A stretch of DNA of 64,000 nucleotides from Piedraia hortae CBS 480.64 (taxonomy: Eukaryota): NCBI GenBank assembly GCA_010093745.1, contig MU005957.1:310001-374000 (forward strand). Reading direction: 5' to 3'. Positions 586 to 40,476 of the stretch are shown piece after piece. How positions within the stretch are numbered: the first letter of the stretch is position 1; each line of letters begins with the position of its first letter. The notes under the pieces were generated by a model, which worked only from the letters and a program-made list of their open reading frames with translations, had not been told where the DNA came from and ran no database searches. Position numbers and translations under genes: made by a program.

Positions 586-3500
586 CGAAAGCTCTATTCT
601 TGCAAGTGGGATGAATGGATGAGCTTTGACGAGTGATGTGTTTCGAGCGTGGTGTGGTTGCCATGTAGACCAAAATGTACCAATTTTTGCCCGTTCAATT
701 GCGTGAGGGGTGCACCTGCTTTCAAGGGTAACTCTGATCAGAAACTGGTTCTCTCAGAGGTGCCACAACAGACCCCTTGGACATTGCAGATTGCTCTGCA
801 TGAACCTCGTTCGATTCATTCTTCATGTCTCATTCTGGAACAGGCTGTTATTCATTTCAAATCGTCGAGCAAGGAAGCGTGAATGCATAGCGGGCTGTAA
901 GATCCGTCGAGAACATACGAGGAGAAACTTGCGACTCAGATGCCTTCCAAGATCAGGTGATTAATGACAGTTTTATTCACGTTGCACGTCAACGGCGGGA
1001 CAAGCGTGAACTGATCCGGTAGATGCGGTACTTGAACACAGCAGTCGAGTCCGCACACGCAATCATGTCGCAAGCGTGCTTATGGCCAACAGGCGATAGG
1101 CAGTGAATAAAGGAGATCAGACCAGCCGTGACAAATTCATCCGAAACTCAACGCGCAGTTTAAGAGAATCCCATGACAACACCGCACACGTGGCCGGGGA
1201 AGTCGGAATAACGGCCAAAAATAGGGCGTTAATGTCCTCTGCCGAAGGTCTCGTGCCTCGACAAGTTTCATCTTCACAAATACCGGAGGTCATGCCCAGG
1301 AGCCAAGTCATGGGAGGATGTCGTGCGCCTTGTCAAAACAGAGTAGGCCTCGTGCCGGCACCCGGCCCGCCTTCCGCGTAGATGCCCTGCCGAGCATGCC
1401 CAAGCCCTAGTTTGTACGACGTTCAGCTCTACCGTTCACGCGGTGAACGACTTTCACACGAGAGCGTGTTTGGTGGGGCTAAAAGGGCGGTGACCATTAC
1501 ATATCCAGGCACATCTTGAAGCTGCAGGAGACCGTGGGGATAAGTCCATTGTTTTTCTACCAGTTGGTGACTGAGACAGGACCAGATGCAAGTCGGCTGG
1601 AGTTGAGTCCAGTCGATTATCAGGGCCCAAACGTGGCTCGAGTTCAACCACACATTTTTGAGGTGTCCACAACGCTAGCGGTCAGAACAAAGAACTTTGG
1701 GTATCGCTGCAGTTATTTGGAGGCAAGCGATAGCGATCCAATCAGTTTCCAACGATCTGTGCAGCTAACCGAGAGTCTGTTCGCGGTCGGGAAAGCGGCT
1801 ATCTAGATGAAAGGCTGAAAAATTCTTCACAGCAATAAGAGCATGTCAGCTGCGGTTAAAACTAAAAATTGAACATATAGGGGCTGCATAAGGTACGAGG
1901 GATATTGGTTCGAGTGTGGCGCGCGCTGCGGCGCCAAGGCGCTGCACGGGCCAACAGACATCGTCCTCATTCAAACCCCCCCGCCTGCACCTTCTGCGGC
2001 GGGACAGCTCAGATGCATGGTGGCTAGGGCTCTCCAAATTACAATAATTATTATCATAAATTCATAATTACCCCCGATAATTTATCCCGACATAATTATT
2101 TACTATTTTTGGTTTGGCGTCGGCCCGGGACAACGGAACGTCCCGACAGCCAATAGAAGACATGGAAGGCTGCGGGTCGCCCGACGCTTCAAGAAGATAA
2201 TAGAATGTTGACGAGGCGGGCTCCATCTGCCTAGCAAAGGAGCTGGGGGAATAAATGAGTGGGTAATCCCCTCCCTCAGCGGAATCTGGACTCAACGGTC
2301 AAGGCTCTGAGCGCTTGTATGTCGAGGTGGTCGTCTAGTCCCCAGCATGCTAAAATGTGGGCGCAGTGGATAAATTATCCAAATGCGGGGAATAAATTAT
2401 CCTAAGAAATCTTTAGCTTTTATTATCATAATTTATGCTGGAGAACCCTAATGGTGGCTGACAAGGGTCGTTGATCGCCAAAGGGATGGGTGCATGGCAT
2501 ACTGCTGGCGCCATCGCCCGTTATTGTTGGGTGCTGCGAGAATCCATACGCGTCACAACCCAAGACCCGGGGATTAAAACAAGAATCAAAACAACCAAAG
2601 AAGAAGGAACGGCGAAACGCTCCCCGGACCCTGACAAAATCTGTCACACCGACGGGCCCTGGAAGTTGACAGCCCGTCCAGGACCAACCACTGTGTATCG
2701 TCCTAATCTGGTCATGAGCTTGCCCCCCACCCACTCCCTCAAAGAGTTCATCCACACCTTTTTCCAAGCCTTCGAATTGTCAGCTCTCGCGTGACCCGGC
2801 CAAACAAAACTCTCAATGACTGTTTCTTCTGAGGTTTGTGACATATCATTTCTGGCAATCGAATGGCTAGCTTTCTACAAGCTAGCTCTAGCGGAGTCCT
2901 GCATCAGATCCCTATCGGGTCCCGGCCCCCGCCTGAAGAGGCAGCAGAAGCAGATGTGCGGTTAAAATTTTTCTTGGCAATGCGAGCTCGTTGGCACCTT
3001 TTCAGGTGATTGATTATTTGGCAATCGCGGGTAGCTTTCCATGATAATGGTCCGCTTTGTGGGAGGTGGGCGGTGGGCGGTGGCGGAAGAAAGCTATGCA
3101 GACACGTAGCATATGGCAATAGGGATGACTTTTTGCCTCGAGTGTTTGCCGTGATGCTGCAGCTTATTCAATTGTGTTGATGACAATACCAAGAGGACTC
3201 TAGCGGCTGCAAACCCTGCCGGGCTCCCGCCGCAAGGAACGCAACGTTGAGTGGATTCGACGACGGATGGCGTTAAGCGGCTGGCCCTCCCTTGCGTCGG
3301 AGTTATAGATAGACTGCTTTCGGCGAGGGTGCCAGCCCATGCAGCTGTCCTCTGCTACCCTGACGCACGACGATGCAGTGGCCTGAGCGTGCTGGGTCTG
3401 CGCTCTTGCTCAAGTCTGACTGGACCCAGATTTCTGGGAGTCTTAGGTAGTCGATTCTGCTCTGGGCGCCAGAGATGAACGGGACTGACCAACCACAAGG

Positions 3501-23299: not shown

Positions 23300-24936
23300 A
23301 GATTCGGGGGCCGTTGAAAACTTGCAGAGCGATCTTCAAATGTGACGAGATGAGAAAGGGCGAAAGACAAGAGGTCTGGAAGCATTGGTGTCGTCTAGGG
23401 CAAAGCTCTACATCATGGCAACCATTCGCCAGGGAATCGTAGAGGGATCGGAGTCGTTCCCATTACAGAGCAGATCGTGTGGGGTATTGATGTGCTTGTC
23501 AGAGTACCTACCCACATTGGTGTATTTCTGCAGGTGGGCCAAGAAGATGACGCAAGTATTACATCAGGCACGTGACCAAACTTCAGTACCTACAACTCAT
23601 ACTGTCTGAACTCGCAATGGCAAGCCAGATACAGGCACTCTTGGAGCGCTTGCTGCCCCTTCGTAGCCTCCTGATTTACGAACGCTATAGTATCAACTGC
23701 ACGGATATTTGCTCTCTGGCATTGCACGCGTATCTAGGCAGTAGCAAGCGAATGATACCGGCGGTGGAGCCGTTGTACCCACCGCTTTTACGCAAGATGT
23801 AGCGGGATCTAGGCGCTGGACATCCCCTTACGATTGAAGCAACAAACAAGCCAATGTATGGCCAGACGAGCCATAGAATCGTTACGCTTCGTTTACGAGC
23901 AAACCTTGAAAGGGCTGATGTCTCAACTAGGAGCCAGGCATATACTAACGTTGCAGGCAGCGCATGATCTAGGTGTACAATGCTGGCGCCGTGGCATGTT
24001 CGACGAAGCGCGAACCGCATACATGCAAGCTTTATAGTGAGGCGCAGAGTCCTAAGGGAGGAACATCTTTCAACACTGGAGACGCTACATCACTTGGGGC
24101 AGCTTCATCTGTCGAAAGGTCGCGAAAAGGACCTGTGGTATGCTAAGCGTGTACTAGAATTGACATTAAATTTGCGAGAGAAGATTTAGGGTTTATACAA
24201 TTCCGCAACCATCCAGACCGTAATCGATATGGGGGATACTCTTTTCTCGTTGGCGAGGAATCATGGTGGTGAACGACGCCAACGCTTGCTAAAAGCTGCC
24301 ATCGAAATGTGTGAAAGGGTCGCGGAACGAAAAGGTAAGCCTGGATGTACAGACGATGCATCAAAATGTGGCATTCTCAAGATTCTTGTGGAAGTTTACA
24401 ATGCCACTGGAATGAGAGAAGAAGCTGTTTCTGCCGCAGTTCGTGTTTTGGCTGTGGGCCAGGTGATATACCGTCGTCATGATAAACTGACTCTGAGCCG
24501 CCTAGAGAGTAACTTGGGGGAGTTATTTTGCGGGATGGGCCAATGGGCCAAGGCGAAGTCGGTTCTTGAAGAAACACCTCGAGGTATTGAGAATATGATA
24601 AAGATCGAAGGCAATGCGAAGGTGGACAGACGTGAGGATGAACCAAGAGCAGATAAGGAAGAAGAGTCCTACACGGCACGTGCTCCGCGGGACATTCTGG
24701 ATCGATTAGACTTGAAGGTGCTCACTTTGCAGCACGTTCAGGCCGCACACAAAGGGTTAGACAAGGATCTAAAGCATCGTATTTGGGAATATAAGATCAA
24801 TGCACTACAGGTCAGGAAACCAGCAAAGCAGTGTAAAAAGGGCCAAAGTATCACTGACGACGCCGTAGGTGGATTTCGTGAAATAGCGCGCAGACTACTA
24901 CATGACAGTCTACATCATACCACTTTGATTCCATGA
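23300..24936 (+). pseudogene. Degenerate TPR-repeat gene, copy B (inverted paralog of copy A)
   Basis: Consecutive ORF pieces in different frames (LGARHILTLQAAHDLG; RVLREEHLSTLETLHHLGQL; LESNLGELF) with internal TAG stops at 24035 and 24187. The 5' boundary is approximate. Confidence 0.72.
23987..24267. repeat. Right arm of the ~280 bp inverted repeat (partner 21068..21343)
   Basis: Same alignment; the ORF track also shows near-identical shadow peptides (SPTRKEYxPYRLRSGWLRN). Confidence 0.95.
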
Positions 24937-29247: not shown

Positions 29248-29463
29248 CCCTCCATCTTCGGGGAAGAAAGGCTGGATGGTACATGAACCCCCTCACGCGT
29301 GATGAGCGGAATCATGACGGGATTCCTAATGAAGTAAATCCGAAGAGCCGATGTGATTACTAGCATACATTACAGTTTTGTACCAATACAATTGCGACGA
29401 CGCCTCGCTCCAATCACCATCCAAAAAGAAGAAAGACGAACGGCAACGCCAAGAAGAAACAAA

Positions 29464-29836
29464 TTATTCCTGCTTTCGCCAGTTTGGCGCATCGCTCCGA
29501 CGCTGTGTCTGACCGGCATTTTGCTGTTGGGGAAACATTGGCTTCGGAACAGGCAGCTGTCCAAAAGCCTGTAACGCACGCTCGGCGGCGTCCTCGCGAG
29601 CATTGTGAACATACTGGCCATCGTACCAGTGACGGGCCTCGAAGAAGTGTGGGCCAACCTGCACGGTGCAGCTCCAAGCGGTGCGGCCGCCTCGTCTGTC
29701 GGACACAATCTGAAAGATGGGAGCCAGATATCCTGAAGCGCGGCAGAACTCTTGATCTCCCGTCAGCCCATTCCAATTCTTCCATCAATATCATCTTACC
29801 TGTCAGCATAACCTCTTTGGGGGACGCGTAATCCAT
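29464..29836 (-). CDS. Small (107 aa) conserved fungal protein with a dsRNA-binding-domain-like fold; complement(join(29464..29750,29800..29836))
   Basis: Spliced product MDYASPKEVMLTEFCRASGYLAPIFQIVSDRRGGRTAWSCTVQVG...NAREDAAERALQ fits the dsRBD alpha-beta-beta-beta-alpha pattern (L-x-E-x-C...P-x-F/Y...A-x-x-x-A-A-x-x-A-L). 49-nt GTAAGA..GCTGAC..AAG intron. Confidence 0.75.
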
Positions 29837-29914
29837 TCTGTCTGTGACAACGCTTGCGTAGGATAGTCAGAGGGAGAGTCTGCGAAAAAGGGAACAGAGC
29901 AAGAAGAGTGTTTG

Positions 29915-31040
29915 CTTGAAAGGAAGAGGGAGGATGATTGCTCTTATACCAACCAACCCCCAATGATCAGGCAACCATCCCAAGGGAAAGGGAAGGGAGG
30001 GTTGAACACACAACACACACGTTCACACTTTTCCCATACCCAGAACGTTTTCCTTATCCTCATTGCCGGGTTTGCTCAGCACCCCAAGATAACACTCCCG
30101 ACTCCGCGAAACCCCCGTCATACATATGAAATATTAAACCCATACGGCAGGTACCCGAGAGCCAACACGGGAGAAGATCGAAGAGAAAACAAGCACCGAA
30201 ACGTGATGTTTGCGATGCACACTCTTTTGTTCTTCCAACAAGAGAAAAAAAGTTGTTTGTCACCCGAGATGTGCAGGAACATCTTCCCACCATACGTTTT
30301 TTTACACAACGGAAACTTGTTTGTCTCCCGAAATCAAAGACGACACGAGGTTTTGTTTGTTCCTTTCGCTTCCCGCTAGGTAAGGAGGTAGGAAAGTAAG
30401 TCTCACACGGACATCACCCCATCATAGAATTCACTACTGCGAGCGAGAGAGGAGACATTCTGCTCACGCAACAGCAGCGTCAGCAAATCACGCAATTGTG
30501 GTTTGGTTGGGACCAACCGGGAATTTTGTTATCCCAGTTGGGTCGTTACACAACCAACGGCGGTCGTACGAACGGTTTGGGATCCCGACAAACAGAACCC
30601 TGTTTCACGTGTATGTCTTTTCGGGAATTTCCCGTTGGGTGACAAATGCGGTGAAAGCAAACTCCTTTCGAGTTTACTGCTTCGCTGTCTATTTCGTTCG
30701 TTTCTCTTTCCTCTTGTTTTCCTATTAGTTCTGCTTTAGGCTTCTCTTTCCACTGTTCGTGCTCTCTCTACTTGGTTTGTGGGTTCTTTCTTTTGCCACT
30801 GATCATTTCGCTTGGGTTTTGTGATTTTGTTTGTGTGGTTTCGTCTCGGGGGGAAGGAAGGCTTGATCACACCAACGTAAATGTGGTGTGTGTGTTCAAC
30901 TTTTTGCGAGACCTGTTCATGGCACGTGCTACAGAAAAGGCAAATGGTGTAAGGAAACAAGTGAGGTGGAATAAAGGTAGGAGGGACTCTTCCCACCATG
31001 AAGCTTGGACAGGTATCCTCTCCCTTCTCATTTCTGTTTT
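29915..31040 (+). ncRNA. Putative large structured non-coding RNA (candidate telomerase RNA; identity unproven)
   Basis: At least six nested long-range helices plus local hairpins. Non-Watson-Crick pairs are mostly G-T on the + strand. No credible ORF. Confidence 0.5.
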
Positions 31041-31153
31041 GTTTACCGACGAAATGATCACGTTCTGGTCGTACAAAGATTCTTCTCGAATATGCTCAAG
31101 ATTACTTTGGCCCATATCTTTTTGCCAACTGAGCTTCTTCCTCCGTCAGAGTG

Positions 31154-32854
31154 TCAGAATAGAAGCAACCACCCGCATGCCACGAGCATCAAGACGACGA
31201 CAGCTTTCCTGCAGTAAGTTACACGACTGACGGCAGAGGCTGCAGTGGCAGTGGTACTAGATGTAACGCTTTCGGTGCTGCTTGTCCCCGTGGTAGCAGG
31301 CGACTCGGTAGTGCTGGCGGCGGCCGTACTACTCTCAAAAGGACGGCCGTTGAGAGGTACCGCGGCGATGCCGGTAACCGTGCCAATTTTGCTTTGAGCC
31401 GTACTCACAAAGAAGCTCGCAGGCGTGTCCGTGCCCGGAGGTGCTATGCTATAAGTCTATCGTGTTGCCTTATTGCTCAGATGTTGGCTCGCTGCGCGCG
31501 CTACGCCGAAAGGTCCGACTTCGACAGTGGCAGTTTCCCTCCTCCCAGTGCTGTTCGTACGCGCTTGCGCTATGGATACTTGGCCTTTGTCGAGATCAAG
31601 ACGGTATACTGGCTTCGTATAATGGCCTCGCCTATTATTGAGGCGTAGTATGGACTGGTCAATTCGGGGATTATGAGGAGCTCGCACAGCGTGTCTGCGA
31701 TGTCGGGGTAAGGAATCGGTTGTTGCGTCTCGGTTTTGTTGACAGGAACGAGTATATAGCTCACGCATCGGAACGTTGGTTGTAGCTGCATTCGCAAAAG
31801 TGAAGGTTAAGCTGTCGTTTTGGTCTCGGGAGGGAGCAAGGGGCAGTAAGTTCGTCGTCAATGTAGAGAAAAAATCGGTTGAATGTACTCGAGGTAGTAG
31901 TGAACAGGTACATACCATGCAGCAGTGCCCACAGCCAGTAGGGCGGTCAGAGCATTAGTAGATGTATCATTGCTGTCTGTTATCTTGTCGAGTCCGCCCG
32001 AATAGAGCGTGGTGAAGTTGTCGCCGACCGTGATGCTGAGTCCAGTCAGAGTAATGTTGACGCTTTTGACTATGCTAGAGCCGACCTCTGGGTGTAGATT
32101 GAGCGTTGTCAATGGGCCTGTGTATTTTGATTTGTCGATTCCGCCAGAGAAGATAGAACCCGTTGATGCATCATCATTGAGATAACAGAAGTATAACCAG
32201 CTGTTGATGACGCCTGTATCCCGCAGAATTTCGGATAAGTTGGGATAAGAACCGCTTTAGGTCTCTATAGCTGAGTAACCGACGCCAAGTAAGTCCGTGA
32301 CGCTCAGTAGCTGGCTGCTCGTAATGTCCTCAGCTAGTCCAAATTACACATTATCGAGGCGCACATTACCAATTCCATCTGTATCTATGGCATAAGGACC
32401 TGTCAAAGGCGTTCGAACGATAGACGCGTTGAATGCCGGGGCTTGCTTAACCACACGGTAGGAGCTTGATTTGTCGGGGTCGAAAGAGCCGTCGCGACAC
32501 TTGATAGGTTCATCCTCTCCCTCGCAAATGGCAGATGACGAGTCAACAAAGTTCAAGTCAGAGGCTCCGGATGAAAGCACTAGTATCTGGTCCTGCGGGG
32601 GGTGATCCAACCGTAACGTTTACATAGTATGTACCACCCCTGGTCCAGGTTTAAGCAATGTACAATGTTGTTTCGAGCGTGTCTCGCTCTAGGAGGCCTT
32701 GATGGGATCAGCATTTGGCTAATCATTCCAAGATGGCTGATGGAACTTGGTTACCTTGAGTGATACGGGATTTTTGGAGCTGGTGGTTAAACCTCAAAAC
32801 GGGCAACTCAGGAAGGGCCAACACGCATACAGCAGATACGAAAGTTGGCTTCAT
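31154..32854 (-). pseudogene. Decayed secreted/GPI-anchored A1 aspartic protease (yapsin-like)
   Basis: Signal peptide MKPTFVSAVCVLAL, YYVNVTVGSPP, FDPDKSSSY, LLGVGY, YPNL and GGIDKSKYTGPLTTL, then an S/T-rich and hydrophobic C-terminus. Multiple stops and frameshifts; both DTG motifs are lost (LSSGAS, LAVGTA). Confidence 0.85.
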
Positions 32855-33069
32855 ATTGGTCAGGAAGGCGACGACGAGGGAAGTACCCCATTGTTGTTGA
32901 AGCCTTAGATCCCGCAAGAGCTAGCCGACAAAGGATAGAAAGTGGCGCATCAAATTTCAGCCTTGTTGCTCCCGCCCGGGGGCTCGGGTCGTCGTCATTG
33001 TGCTTGAACATGAACTGCCTTGTCCACACAGGTATCTATAATGAATCAAGCCAGTTCAGGCCGTCATGG

Positions 33070-33840
33070 CTATTTCAAAGTGCCAATGTGAACAACAAGA
33101 TCACCATGTCCTAAAAAACCTTCAGGCATCCTCCAAGTGTGAAAGAACCGGCTGAAACGCAGCAACCACGCCGCGAAGATGTCTTCTTGTCGAAGATGTT
33201 GAGCAATGATGCAAATAGCTGGCCGCAGACGACAGATATCCGTACAGGTTTGAACAAAAGGTGCAATGAGAGCCTCGTTGTAGATGCAATCACAGGCGAT
33301 TACAACATCGATACCTTGTCCCAAACCATGGGATCGTAGCTGTAACCCTATGTCGGTTTCCTCCCAGTCTAGGGGCATGACTTTGATGCTATCATAGCCT
33401 TCCACGTTGGCACGTAGTTGTTTGAGGGTATGAAACTGGTCAGTAGCGATGACTGTTTTCACAAACGGAGCCAAGACACGTGCCAACAACCCTGATGTAC
33501 CCGAACCGAGCTCCAACACTGTTGTTTGGCTGTTGAAAACGTTTGCCTCCCCTCTCAGTTCGCATCGTGGATCTGATATGGACTGGGCAAACGCAAGAGA
33601 GGTCCGCCACAACACTGCTCCAGTCGTGCCCTTTGATCCCTTTGACAGTAACGCACCAGGCGACTGCATGACCATGTAGTCTTTGTTCCCAATCGTGATA
33701 TCTAGCTCCTGGGCTCGTGGATTCACCATACCAAGGCCGGTCAGAGCCGATGCGCGAAAGAATAGAGAGAAAGTCTCTTCATCCACGTCGTCGACTTTGA
33801 GCCCCAACTGGTCTAGGAACCCTAAAGTATTCCCAGGCAT
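33070..33840 (-). CDS. RKM5: Methyltransf_16-family protein lysine methyltransferase (RKM5-like)
   Basis: QSPGALLS...GTTGAVLW, VLELGSGTSG, ATDQ, LDWE and VIACDCIYNEALIAPFV. ATG at 33840. Confidence 0.85.
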   Translation of the reverse strand: MPGNTLGFLDQLGLKVDDVDEETFSLFFRASALTGLGMVNPRAQELDITIGNKDYMVMQSPGALLSKGSKGTTGAVLWRTSLAFAQSISDPRCELRGEANVFNSQTTVLELGSGTSGLLARVLAPFVKTVIATDQFHTLKQLRANVEGYDSIKVMPLDWEETDIGLQLRSHGLGQGIDVVIACDCIYNEALIAPFVQTCTDICRLRPAICIIAQHLRQEDIFAAWLLRFSRFFHTWRMPEGFLGHGDLVVHIGTLK

Positions 33841-34036
33841 GATGGTGGGATGGCGCTCTGCAGAATTGAATTTGCCAAGGAAAGCATATGTGAAACACGT
33901 GTTTGACGAGCCTTCAAGTCTTGTATAGGATGAGCAACACAAACCATGAACGAGAGGCTTTCGCGGAGCATATACATGAACGGGCATAACCTATGTATCC
34001 CACCACCATCCTACCGGTCTGATTCATCATTCGTCA

Positions 34037-36293
34037 TTAACCGCTATAAGCCTTTTCAATCTCCTTTTTGTACTTTTCCAACAGGCCTTTCCGGTTCAAT
34101 TTCTGCGCCGAAGTTACAAGCCCCTTAGTGTGTCAGTATCATGGCTACGGATTAAAATGAGATGCTTACGTTCTGAGGTGTCCATTCTTCATCAGACAAC
34201 ACGACTCCTTGGATGAGCTCGATTCCTGACAATCCACCTTTACGACCTGTGGCCTGCATTGCTTCCAGCATGGCCGCATTGACTTTCTTGTTGCTGCACA
34301 GTTCATCCAAGCCTCCACTGACCCCATGTTCAGAGGCAATCTTCTTCAATTCGCGTTCCACTGGAACAACAATTGCAACTGGCTTATTCTTGTCTTGCGC
34401 AGCATGAACACAGATATTGCCGACTGCAGGGCAAGAACGGTAGACAGACTCCAGCTTCTCCAAAGCGATATACTCACCGTTTAGGGTTTTAACCAAGTTC
34501 TTCTTCCGGTCGATGATGTTCAAGTTACCAAGAGTGTCAAACTCACCAATGTCGCCCGTCTTGAACCAGCCATCATCGGTGAACGATTCCTTGGTCTCCT
34601 CTTCCAGATCAAGGTACCCCTTGGTGACAGCTGGTCCGCGAATCCAAATTTCACCCTGAGGAGGCGTGTTGGTTGAAAAGTAGCCAGCGTCAGCAAAATC
34701 GACCAACTTGATCTCGACAGAGCTGGGAACCTCGCCAAGTGCTGAGTCGGTCCATGCAAGAGGATCCATCAGTGCACCCATTGCAGATGTCTCGGTCAGA
34801 CCATAGCCACTAATCATAGGAGCGATGACCATGGAGATGAACCGCTGCGTGTCCTTGGCAATTGGCCCTCCGCCATTCATGCACACCCTAAGGCGACCAC
34901 CGGTGGCTTCCTGAACCTTCTTGAAAACCACAGAATCGACAATGCTGGCGCCTACACCCGAAAGAGGCAGATAGTTGGAGTTTGACATCATAAAGCTCTT
35001 GGTGTGCAGAGCTCCCCAGAACATATTTCGCACAATGGGGTTCATCTGCTGCACTTTGCTCACGACACCCTTTTTGACCGTTTCCCATACAGCAGGTACA
35101 CCAACCAGGATGGTTGGCTTAAACTCGGCGATATCCCCACGGCAATTTCTCATACTGGCGTCCGAAATGGTTTTCGCATTACCATATCCCATGGTTCCTC
35201 CCCAGTACAGACATGCTCCCTCAAAGACGAACTCGAGGATGTGAGCCAAGGGAAGGTAGGTCAAGAGTCCATCACCGGGTCCAAGGTCCGGGCCGACAAT
35301 GGTGTCAACACCGGCAATGGCGGCAAGAACATTTTGGTGCGTAAGCAATACGCCCTTGGGAGGTCCAGTGGAGCCCGACGTGTACATGATGCAACACAAA
35401 TCCTCGGGCCGAGGTGGTGACGGATCTATAGGATGGCTTTCCCCGCGCTTCACAAGCTCTCCGAAGCCCATGACAGTCAGATGAGGATGAACCGCAGTCA
35501 GCTTCTGGATATCGGCTTTGAGCGTGTTTGGGTCTGTTTTGGAGGTTGCTCCATCGTCATCATTGTACACGACAAATTTGATGTCCTTGGCCTCGTTCAT
35601 CGGATTGATGAGCTTTGTCAAAAGGTGGGGATCCAGGAAGATAGCTTTAGCATTAGTCTGCATCAACGAATGCTTGAGACCCGTCTCGCCCAGCGTATCA
35701 TATGCAGTGACAATGGGCATGTTCTGACTGTGCGCGCCATGAGCGAATGCCAGCCAGTAGGGATGAGTGGCAGCAAAAATGTGCACGCGATCCTGGTGCT
35801 GCATGCCTAGCGACCGTAGGCCGGCGCCCACTTTGAGTACTAGTTGCTCGTACTCGACAAAGGATATATACTCGTAGGGGCCGAGTTCAAAATATGTCCA
35901 TTTCTTGGGAACCTCTTGTTCCTTCCCATCCACAATCTTCTTGATTTTCTTCTCCTCTTGGTGTAGACGTATCAGCTTCCTCTTGCCGAGAGCCTTTGCG
36001 TTGCCGAAGCGCTTGCTGGAATGCTTGATGATATCGAAAGTAGTCAGAACCTCCGGATCAGGTGATGCCAGCAGACTGTCTTTGGTACGTGCATTGCGGC
36101 GAGGAATCGTCTCGCCGTCCACCTTCTGGCAGCCGGGAACCTCCACCGTGTAGGGAGGGCGCTTGTAGACCTTGGGCTGCGGCGCTATGGATCGCAAGTC
36201 TACATGTTCTACATCTACCAGATCATGCGTCTGGTTGGAAAGAGCAAAGGGCAACATACCAGCAGTCTCCAGAGCGCCGTCAAATACAGACAT
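34037..36293 (-). CDS. FAA1: Long-chain fatty acyl-CoA synthetase; complement(join(34037..34123,34170..36293)), possible further short in-frame intron near the 5' end
   Basis: IMYTSGSTGPPKG, YLPLAHILE, GYGLTET and GWFKTGDIG. The last exon GLVTSAQKLNRK follows a 46-nt GTAAGC..AAG intron. Confidence 0.95.
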
Positions 36294-36457
36294 GTGTCGG
36301 GAGGACAGATGTGGGGGACGTTGAAGACCTCAGCCATTCGTGACGTCATTAACTAACTCATATCAACACGCGTGATTTGTTCACATGTGGTCAGTAAAGC
36401 ATTTACATCTTCACATCCAGTTCCGACAGACGTTGGATAGAATAAAACAGTATAAGG

Positions 36458-38411: not shown

Positions 38412-39620
38412 TTAAAAAAGCGCCAGGCTCTCGCGCAAGGCGATATACTCGCTATCTGCATACCCCAGGATATCAGATATTTGACCGCTTTTCACGCCTT
38501 TGATCCGTTTGATCTCTGTCGCAGAGTAATTGACCAGTGCGCGACCTACCTCATGGGCACCATTCAAGCCAACTGTTCCATTGGGTATGACAGACAGGCG
38601 CACACACTCTTGTTGCCCGAAAATGCCCTCAACATCGACCACACCCACCGGGAGCAGACCGGCTTTAGCAGCAATTGCGGCGTGGGCTCCGGCATCAATA
38701 TAAACGGTGCCGTGCGGCGCCAGTCCATGTAAGAGCCAGAAATACCGGTCTCTGATTGGGTTTGGGTGTGGCAGAAATCGAGTGTGAAGCGGTGGAGCCT
38801 GTACTGGAAGCACCCCAGCCTTTTGCTGTTCCACGTGATGCACAATCGCTGCAATGCTGCCCGGTCTGCTGCTACGTGCGATGATGGTGGTGACACCCGC
38901 GGCCGTGGCAAGACGAGCCGCCACAATCTTCGTTTCCATGCCTCCTGTCCCGAGGTTGCTCCCCGCAGAGCTCGTGTCAGCTTCCAGCTTGGAAATGTCG
39001 TTTACAACCTCAATGGCTCTGGCGTCTGCGTGTGTTCGAGGGTTCTTATCGTACAGACAATCCACGTCAGTCATTAGGAACAAATAGTCAGCCTGAACCA
39101 TGCCTGCAGTAATGGCCGAGAGCGTATCGTTGTCTCCAAACTTGATCTCCTGTACACTGAGCGTATCGTTTTCATTTACAATTGGGATTACTCCAAAGCT
39201 CAACAACTCCCCAAAGGTATTTTGTGCGTTGAGGTACTGCGTTCGGTCCGCAATGTCATTGCGAGTCAGTAAGATCTGTGCTACAGGCTGGCGCACATGA
39301 GCGAACAGCTGGTCGTACATGGCCATGAGCTTGCACTGGCCGATGGCTGCCAACGCCTGCACCTGGGGAAGGTGTTTGGGACGACGGTCTAGGTCCATCT
39401 GTCTGAGAGCCATTCCAATGGCTCCGGACGAACAGATGACAACATGATGGCCGTCTCGCCGAAGCGCGACTGCCGTCTCCACGATTGAGCTCAATATGGA
39501 GAGGCGCGGTTCGTGCGTGCCCTCGTCCACGATAGACGAGGTCCCTGATCATTAGCAACCGCACAACCTTGGACAGCCCGTCTTACCGAGTTTGATGACT
39601 ATAGTGGTGTGTTTCTTCAT
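38412..39620 (-). CDS. PRO1: Glutamate 5-kinase with PUA domain; complement(join(38412..39544,39587..39620))
   Basis: IVIKLGTSSI (across a 42-nt intron), SSGAIG, PIVNENDT, KFGDNDTLSA, GTGGMETK and GLLPVGV. Confidence 0.95.
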
Positions 39621-39690
39621 CTCGCTGTAGCTACCCAAGGCGAAGATAAATTCCACTGGTGCGCGCTGTGGGGACGCGGCACGTTTGACA

Positions 39691-40476
39691 ATGGCACAAG
39701 ACGTGCGTACTTACTCGGCCAATGGAACCTGGCGCGTGAGCACGCGCAAGCGACCTATTCTCAAGGCCCAGCCCATTGAGGAGCTTTCCAAGGAAATTGG
39801 CATTCCAATTCCTGAAATGATTTTTGGGGACAACTATATAGAAATTGTGCATAAGCCCACGGGATGGAAGCTGGAGTTCAATGCCCGCGATGCGCTGGAC
39901 CGAGTCTCCAAGACCGACAAAGGCATGCTGCAAGTGGCCGTGGCGGAGGAGTGGAAGAAAGAGCGTAGCCACAAAGACGAGGTTCGCACTGTGGTTAAGC
40001 CATTTGACTGGAGTTACAGCACAGACTACAAAGGTACCACGATCAGCGGACAGGCAAAAGGCTCTTGGATGCCGTCTAATCAAACGGAGCATCCCATTCG
40101 CATCGATTTACTTTCAAGGCCCGATCCTATCTTGTTCTTCGACACAGTCGATCTCTACGAAGATGAGCTTGCTGACAACGGCATCGCACTCTTTTCTATC
40201 AAAGTACGAGTCATGCCGGAACGTCTCTTGCTCCTTAGTCGCTTCTTTCTTCGCCTGGACGGTGTGGTGGTTCGCATTCGCGACACGCGAGTCTACATAG
40301 AGCTCGGAAGCAAGACAGTCGTGCGGGAATACACGGCTAAAGAAGAAAAGTACAAAGCTTTGAGAGACAAGCTGGGCGGATCCACGGATAATGTCACATC
40401 GATACTGAGGGACGGGAATCGCCTGGCCCCCCTCTTGCCCACAGTGGAGCAGACGACCGATGTGTGGGAGTTTTAA
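39691..40476 (+). CDS. TIP41: TIP41-like PP2A regulator
   Basis: PEMIFGDN, KPFDWSYSTDYKGT, LYEDELADNG and RFFLRLDGVVVRIRDTRVY. Confidence 0.95.
   Translation: MAQDVRTYSANGTWRVSTRKRPILKAQPIEELSKEIGIPIPEMIFGDNYIEIVHKPTGWKLEFNARDALDRVSKTDKGMLQVAVAEEWKKERSHKDEVRTVVKPFDWSYSTDYKGTTISGQAKGSWMPSNQTEHPIRIDLLSRPDPILFFDTVDLYEDELADNGIALFSIKVRVMPERLLLLSRFFLRLDGVVVRIRDTRVYIELGSKTVVREYTAKEEKYKALRDKLGGSTDNVTSILRDGNRLAPLLPTVEQTTDVWEF

Follow-up and report, generated by a model that had tools for sequence, protein, structure and literature searches.

Telomerase RNA of filamentous ascomycetes is 1.2–2.4 kb in length, contains long-range helices, and carries an Sm site, with the consensus AU4-6G, near its 3' end. 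At SRG1-SER3 of yeast, intergenic read-through or upstream non-coding transcription runs over the promoter of the downstream gene. Here we analysed a segment of about 1.1 kb in a 64-kb window (the whole stretch of DNA studied, to which all positions refer), which a preliminary description had presented as a plus strand RNA with a long nested multi-helix fold. The segment resembles telomerase RNA of filamentous ascomycetes in its size range, its predicted long-range closing helices, and the U-rich motif after the terminal helix; it differs in having no CCCTAA/TTAGGG, no Rfam telomerase match, and no canonical Sm site. The excerpts of the literature on the Piedraia hortae genome, on Piedraia lncRNA, and on structured lncRNA of Dothideomycetes contained no account of such an RNA. 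Our analysis suggests that the segment is probably, though by no means certainly, the inner part of an ordinary transcribed spacer, formed by the trailer or read-through of a pseudogene together with the promoter and leader of a dsRBD gene.

Genomic context and flanking genes

The window belongs to Piedraia hortae: the product of a gene neighbouring the segment was 100% identical to a hypothetical protein of strain CBS 480.64 (107 aa). The excerpted text of PMC7082219 describes the P. hortae assembly as the smallest among Dothideomycetes, with 16.95 Mb and 7,572 genes, and names P. hortae as the species with the fewest genes of any Dothideomycete (PMC7082219). The locus comprises the following features:

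29464..29836, minus strand: predicted gene of a single-dsRBD protein, 107 aa
about 29751–29799, minus strand: annotated intron of the dsRBD gene
29837..31153, minus strand: whole spacer of 1.3 kb, from the stop codon of the pseudogene to the ATG of the dsRBD gene
29915..31040, no strand assigned: segment of the preliminary description, non-coding, with self-complementarity slightly above chance
31154..32853, minus strand: aspartyl-protease-like pseudogene (Pfam Asp, E 1.9e-21 across two in-frame stops)
29475..32696, no strand assigned: unbroken cover by one RNA-derived contig of 4628 nt, which resumes at 32754–34122 after a spliced intron

Both genes flanking the spacer lie on the minus strand, with the aspartyl-protease pseudogene upstream and the single-dsRBD gene downstream. 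The spacer is about 3–5 times as long as the median coding gap of 270–390 nt, a crude estimate from the 64-kb window, and the window contains four more coding-poor gaps of 1.2–1.8 kb by a crude codon-usage measure. Strand composition is mirrored across the segment, the left part being A/C-rich and the right part G/T-rich. A 22-nt direct repeat with 86% identity lies close to both segment ends.

The downstream neighbour, previously described as dsRBD-like, is a genuine single-dsRBD gene by its relatives, profile comparison, and predicted fold. Its protein had 84 fungal relatives, with Salinomyces, Baudoinia, and Elasticomyces among the source genera; the next-best matches after the identical one were 66–77% identical, and the named matches came from Dothideomycetes, Eurotiomycetes, Sordariomycetes, Leotiomycetes, and lichen-forming fungi. 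All 84 were named only hypothetical, uncharacterized, or DRBM-domain proteins. A Pfam search of the protein yielded nothing at E up to 0.01; the family profile compared with PDB matched HYL1 at E 0.0015, as well as other dsRBDs. The AlphaFold model (mean pLDDT 79.6) had a predicted alpha-beta-beta-beta-alpha order (H6-18, E24-32, E35-44, E47-50, H60-74), and its best Foldseek matches were the dsRBDs of HYL1, TRBP, DRB, and Staufen, the E values being as low as 9.1e-05 and the TM(target) as high as 0.85.

In the protease pseudogene, the N- and C-terminal parts sit in different frames from the Pfam Asp match. The first catalytic motif, which in the consensus of aspartyl proteases is DTG, is SSG. 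The pseudogene is transcribed, and its first intron (32697–32753) was spliced out in the RNA contig. A broken yet transcribed protease gene fits gene loss under way in a reduced genome.

When metagenomes were scanned with the dsRBD protein, 2 of 97 pattern matches were confirmed, giving two related dsRBD loci, L001 and L002. Only the coding part of their dsRBD genes could be aligned with the window, and their upstream DNA before the ATG amounted to about 440 and 190 bp, respectively. The gene downstream of the L002 dsRBD gene is a membrane-protein-like ORF (as read from its translation) vs. Dak1 in the window; therefore, synteny is not kept.

Transcription across the spacer

A single sequencing run carried the locus. 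It was labelled 'RNA?' and was taken as RNA-derived because three stretches with CT..AC ends were skipped and one contig had a poly-T loose end, which marks a minus strand 3' end. The 4628-nt contig spans the whole spacer unspliced and joined to both neighbour genes; the contig itself gives no strand, level, or ends. Three contig joints were found outside the spacer, all with the CT..AC ends of minus strand introns, and none inside it. The spacer is transcribed, with low-level DNA carry-over in the run still possible. A discrete RNA bounded by 29915 and 31040, as the preliminary description had it, is not supported: the sole RNA contig passes both positions and extends into both neighbouring genes. 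The segment is nevertheless present in this contig, which could represent either strand.

Several other observations were made on the same contigs. The dsRBD intron (29751–29799, minus strand) was retained in the only RNA contig covering it, whereas the introns of neighbour genes were removed; intron retention, antisense or read-through RNA, or low expression are possible causes. A 46-nt intron at 34123–34168 (minus strand) was removed just before the apparent stop of an acyl-CoA-ligase-like ORF (34152–36329), and therefore the real C-terminus of this protein differs from that of the plain ORF. The last exon of the acyl-CoA-ligase-like gene abuts a methyltransferase gene. One contig chains the transcripts of four consecutive minus strand genes.

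Coding content

The segment had been called ORF-poor, which proved inaccurate: in five of the six frames, stops are scarcer than expected from composition, and ORFs between two stops reach 170 and 191 aa. No coding content was detectable in it. A Pfam search with the six read-through frames of the spacer (X at stops) returned only DUF7193 at E 0.098. Three queries were sent to large protein databases (the 138-aa ORF, one plus frame, and one minus frame). Neither the 138-aa ORF nor the plus frame 29839–31152 had protein relatives in these large sets, and the minus frame 29839–31152 matched none of 1.84 billion proteins at E up to 0.001. Codon-usage scores of spacer ORFs ranged from -0.11 to +0.08 per codon vs. 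0.15 for long genes, this score being a weak discriminator. A relic of a paralogue was not supported either: comparing 208 window ORFs with the spacer by tblastn produced nothing significant, the lowest E being 0.004 in a tiny database.

Stop-type trinucleotides (TAA, TAG, TGA, and their complements) were depleted in 29837–31153, with 72 observed vs. 103.6 +/- 6.8 in dinucleotide shuffles and 83–90 in block-12 to block-50 shuffles. With an observed-to-expected ratio of 0.70, the median across the window being 0.87, the spacer is on a par with those coding pieces in which the depletion is strongest.

Complementary arms and helices

All seven complements that had been reported as perfect were indeed perfect (7/7), and the terminal helix (29922–29935/31015–31028) was imperfect, as described. 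Two pairs with long arms are:

30001..30012, no strand assigned: left arm of the 12-nt perfect complement (partner 30889–30900), in part similar to (CA)n/(TG)n; paired with probability 0.95 on either strand
30889..30900, no strand assigned: right arm of the 12-nt perfect complement (partner 30001–30012)
30256..30265, no strand assigned: left arm of the 10-nt perfect complement (partner 30637–30646); pair probability 0.98 on the plus strand and 0.94 on the minus strand
30637..30646, no strand assigned: right arm of the 10-nt perfect complement (partner 30256–30265)

The long nested fold as a whole was recovered in part. Six of its eight helices occurred in the plus strand MFE structure, with 5/6 to 12/12 of their pairs, while two were absent, namely 30185–30193/30713–30721 (0/9 pairs) and 30911–30916/31009–31014 (0/6 pairs). 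Helices 30001/30900 (12-nt), 30157/30766 (6-nt), and 30256/30646 (9–10-nt) persisted on both strands in three larger contexts (1.3–1.8 kb). Extended to 19 nt, the inverted pair 30001–30012/30889–30900 was 84% complementary.

The complements exceed chance only mildly. The longest perfect one in the segment measures 12 nt; among dinucleotide shuffles, 150 of each kind, 4.7% of the global and 8.7% of the block-100 set reached that length. Complements of at least 8 nt numbered 19 vs. 11.3/12.2 expected (2%/5.3% of shuffles get there), and those of at least 6 nt numbered 188 vs. 156–164 expected in shuffles. Complements of 6 nt are uninformative: with 156–164 chance complements of at least 6 nt in 1126 nt, a nested picture can be assembled from 6–9-mers in every case.

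The three best of 1400 anti-diagonals clustered at centres 30454.5–30464.5, the best having 34.8% Watson-Crick pairs vs. a mean of 25.3%, and the nested pairs of the preliminary description share a common centre near 30457. A decayed long palindrome was not supported: the gapped arm-to-arm alignment was not significant against block-25/50 shuffles. The left arm aligned to the reverse complement of the right arm with z 0.8–0.9, a value equalled by 18–25% of 200 local-composition shuffles, and transition-type mismatches were not enriched on the best anti-diagonal (106/465 vs. about 116 expected). A precursor of hairpin siRNA or milRNA, for which we required a near-perfect duplex of about 20 bp or more for Dicer, was rejected with a longest perfect complement of 12 nt and 34.8% Watson-Crick pairs on the best anti-diagonal. 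No target-site duplication was seen by reading the flanks of the 12-nt inverted arms, the inverted pair itself being present and perfect. No further copies of the segment were found in the other 62.7 kb of the window (best off-diagonal E >=0.86).

Clustered short palindromic binding sites were rejected as well, as 6 palindromes with arms of at least 4 nt were counted vs. 9.65 expected. Two single palindromes may be noted as candidate binding sites: a perfect one of 13 nt at 30622–30634 with a CGG-N7-CCG layout, and GCACGTGC at 30922–30929 in the spacer, which we take to be E-box-like.

Folding energy and strand

The minimum free energy of the segment 29915–31040 calculated with RNAfold was -342.3 kcal/mol on the plus strand and -349.0 kcal/mol on the minus strand. 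The plus strand folded better than composition-preserving shuffles by a modest margin, with z -2.16 against 39 global dinucleotide shuffles (1/39 equals it) and -2.45 against 39 block-100 shuffles (0/39). The minus strand was better than the plus strand, with z -3.01 (global) and -3.74 (block-100), equalled by 0/37 shuffles in each set. Mirrored composition alone was rejected as the cause of the fold: block-100 shuffles folded no better than global ones, with mean energies of -319.7 vs. -326.9 (plus) and -320.0 vs. -324.7 (minus).

As a natural background, we folded 1126-nt pieces from the remainder of the 64 kb, each compared with 8 shuffles and scored with the SD set to 8. Since the shuffles had a pooled SD of 9.16, this scale makes z values slightly generous. 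On it, the segment had z -1.93 (plus) and -3.04 (minus). The 28 evenly spaced background window-strands had a mean z of -0.08 with SD 1.36; of 34 window-strands (these 28 and 6 added ones), three were at or below -1.93 and one was at or below -3.04. The three other ORF-poor gaps folded for the added ones gave z from +1.4 to -1.6. The self-complementarity of the segment is in the lower tail of, yet within, the range seen elsewhere in the genome, and the margin by which it folds better than chance is modest and unremarkable for this genome.

A scan of 200-nt pieces gave z <=-3 for 1/42 values of the region (30500–30699, minus strand, -3.78) vs. 1/86 background values (39350–39549, plus strand, -4.34). 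The strongest local fold signal was then delimited as:

30470..30700, minus strand: central piece of 231 nt, which includes the 30648–30680 hairpin

On the minus strand, this piece had -81.8 kcal/mol and z -4.79, which none of 200 shuffles reached, its boundaries having been picked after the 200-nt scan; on the plus strand, z was -2.34 (3/200 shuffles).

Two places elsewhere in the window deserve mention. The 200-nt piece 39350–39549 (plus strand), with the most extreme of the 86 background values, z -4.34, lies at the start of two divergent ORFs, 38415–39548 (minus) and 39631–40473 (plus). The 1126-nt piece 1500–2625, with z of about -3.1 (plus) and -2.8 (minus), is as strong as the studied segment; it lies partly inside another coding-poor gap (754–2461), and the shifted window 1045–2170 is weak (-1.15, -0.14).

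The imperfect pairs had been reported to be mostly G-T on the plus strand and had been read as pointing to a plus strand RNA. This bias was not reproduced, with 44 G.U pairs in the plus and 36 in the minus strand MFE structure. Mirroring either structure onto the opposite strand loses these 44 or 36 pairs, and the structures of both strands share only 164 of about 355 pairs. Some details do favour the plus strand: the terminal helix has a pair probability of 0.87 on that strand only, and hairpin 30484–30505 depends on a G.U pair whose counterpart on the minus strand is C.A. Taken together, the assignment to the plus strand does not stand: folding is better on the minus strand, the two strands differ little in G.U use, and it is the minus strand that carries both flanking genes and the three introns observed. 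By z-score, the minus strand is the better candidate.

Comparison with known RNA classes

The preliminary description had noticed no diagnostic RNase P/MRP, SRP, or spliceosomal snRNA motifs, in agreement with our scan of the 64 kb on both strands with Rfam 15 covariance models, in which 0/4227 families reached the gathering score. A relaxed scan of 29300–31700 with E up to 10 returned only AniS, snoU83B, and Yar_2, all at the chance level of E > 2; AniS scored 18.8 bits vs. a gathering score of 50. A tRNA search found none in the segment. Neither TTAGGG nor CCCTAA occurred in 29915–31040 on either strand, a TTAGGG-type repeat being assumed for this fungus, and the nearest copies were at 24186 and 33820. 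The motif ATTTCTG (31030–31036), which had been likened to an Sm site, has a C interrupting the U run, and no snRNA model matched.

Oligo-T runs are present in the segment, T7 at 30297–30303 (plus) and A7 at 30245–30251, which is T7 on the minus strand. A transcript of RNA polymerase III is expected to be free of oligo-T terminators within the strand that is transcribed. The T7 and A7 runs inside the segment thus argue against such a transcript on both strands, and this class was rejected.

Discussion

The reading that we consider probable is that of the inner part of an ordinary transcribed spacer. Transcripts from the still-active promoter of the pseudogene would traverse the spacer as trailer or read-through, and the dsRBD gene would have its promoter and CT-rich leader in the left part of the spacer, so that 29837–31153 as a whole would correspond to pseudogene trailer plus dsRBD promoter and leader. 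The self-complementarity would be a by-product of mirrored composition and a few short motifs occurring in two orientations and not a selected RNA architecture. Counted in favour of this reading were the gene context, the RNA contig, the modest fold excess, the limited number of pairs shared by the two strands, the unalignable arms, the absence of Rfam and tRNA matches, and the similar gaps nearby; counted against it were the minus strand z, the weaker folding of the three other ORF-poor gaps, the z of 30470–30700, the spacer size in a compact genome, and the stop-type depletion.

An unlikely but serious alternative is a functional structured RNA of the minus strand, which would serve as a long 5' leader on the dsRBD mRNA or stand alone as an upstream lncRNA, with its core at about 30470–30700. 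It is favoured by the better folding of this strand over the whole segment and, most of all, in the centre, by the orientation of the flanking genes and observed introns, and by the continuity of the RNA contig; the unskipped dsRBD intron in the contig would fit an RNA other than mature mRNA dominating there. The related loci L001 and L002, however, align in the coding part only, with short upstream DNA. The central piece was picked after a scan, a z of -4.34 exists elsewhere in the window, and a 1.3-kb leader would be expected to hold many upstream AUGs. What keeps the minus strand RNA alive is the spacer size, the central minus strand element, and the stop-type depletion. In a bolder version, to which we give a slim chance, the long base-paired RNA of the minus strand and the stand-alone dsRBD protein would form a cis-linked pair, the protein binding its own upstream RNA in autoregulation or as a dedicated partner. 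Such a pair would explain why 1.3 kb of non-coding DNA was kept in the smallest known Dothideomycete genome.

Slightly less probable than a functional minus strand RNA is a functionless relic, in which genome reduction would have left the eroded remains of a lost gene, or of an ancient foldback or inverted duplication. The adjacent protease pseudogene in the Dothideomycete with the fewest genes, the coding-like low level of stop-type trinucleotides, the clustering of the best anti-diagonals at 30454.5–30464.5, and the 22-nt direct repeat near both ends are consistent with it. On the other side stand the lack of a Pfam match in the six read-through frames and of protein relatives for the three queries, the insignificant arm alignment against local-composition shuffles, and the absence of target-site duplication by the 12-nt arms and of copies in the window.

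A discrete plus strand non-coding RNA of about 1.1 kb (29915–31040), arising for example from the dsRBD promoter in divergent or antisense direction, is very improbable despite the six recovered helices, the plus-only terminal helix and hairpin, and its presence in the RNA contig. Of the natural window-strands, 3/34 match its z of roughly -2.2 to -2.5, G.U pairs show no bias to the plus strand, the contig passes both boundaries, ATTTCTG is not a canonical Sm site, and the ends of the segment had been chosen to suit the terminal helix.

If the segment is indeed the inner part of an ordinary transcribed spacer, it is a calibration case, in which nested complements of 6–9 nt picked by eye are expected by chance in 1.1 kb and mirrored strand composition lends the spacer the look of a giant hairpin. 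If the minus strand reading is true, the locus would join a long structured RNA and a single-dsRBD protein into one compact, genetically linked unit that is open to direct testing.

Among the known systems, foldback or MITE-like elements and hairpin-siRNA loci share with the segment the outer 12-nt inverted arms, the mirrored composition, and the nested complements near 30457, but differ from it in that its arms are unalignable beyond composition, its longest duplex is 12 bp, and neither target-site duplication nor copies in 64 kb were found. Upstream transcription of the SRG1-SER3 type in yeast differs in that the upstream unit here is a pseudogene, the RNA contig here carries no strand, and a regulatory effect would be hypothetical. 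It is the same as the present locus in having tandem same-strand genes, a non-coding RNA over the spacer to the downstream gene, and no coding content in that spacer.
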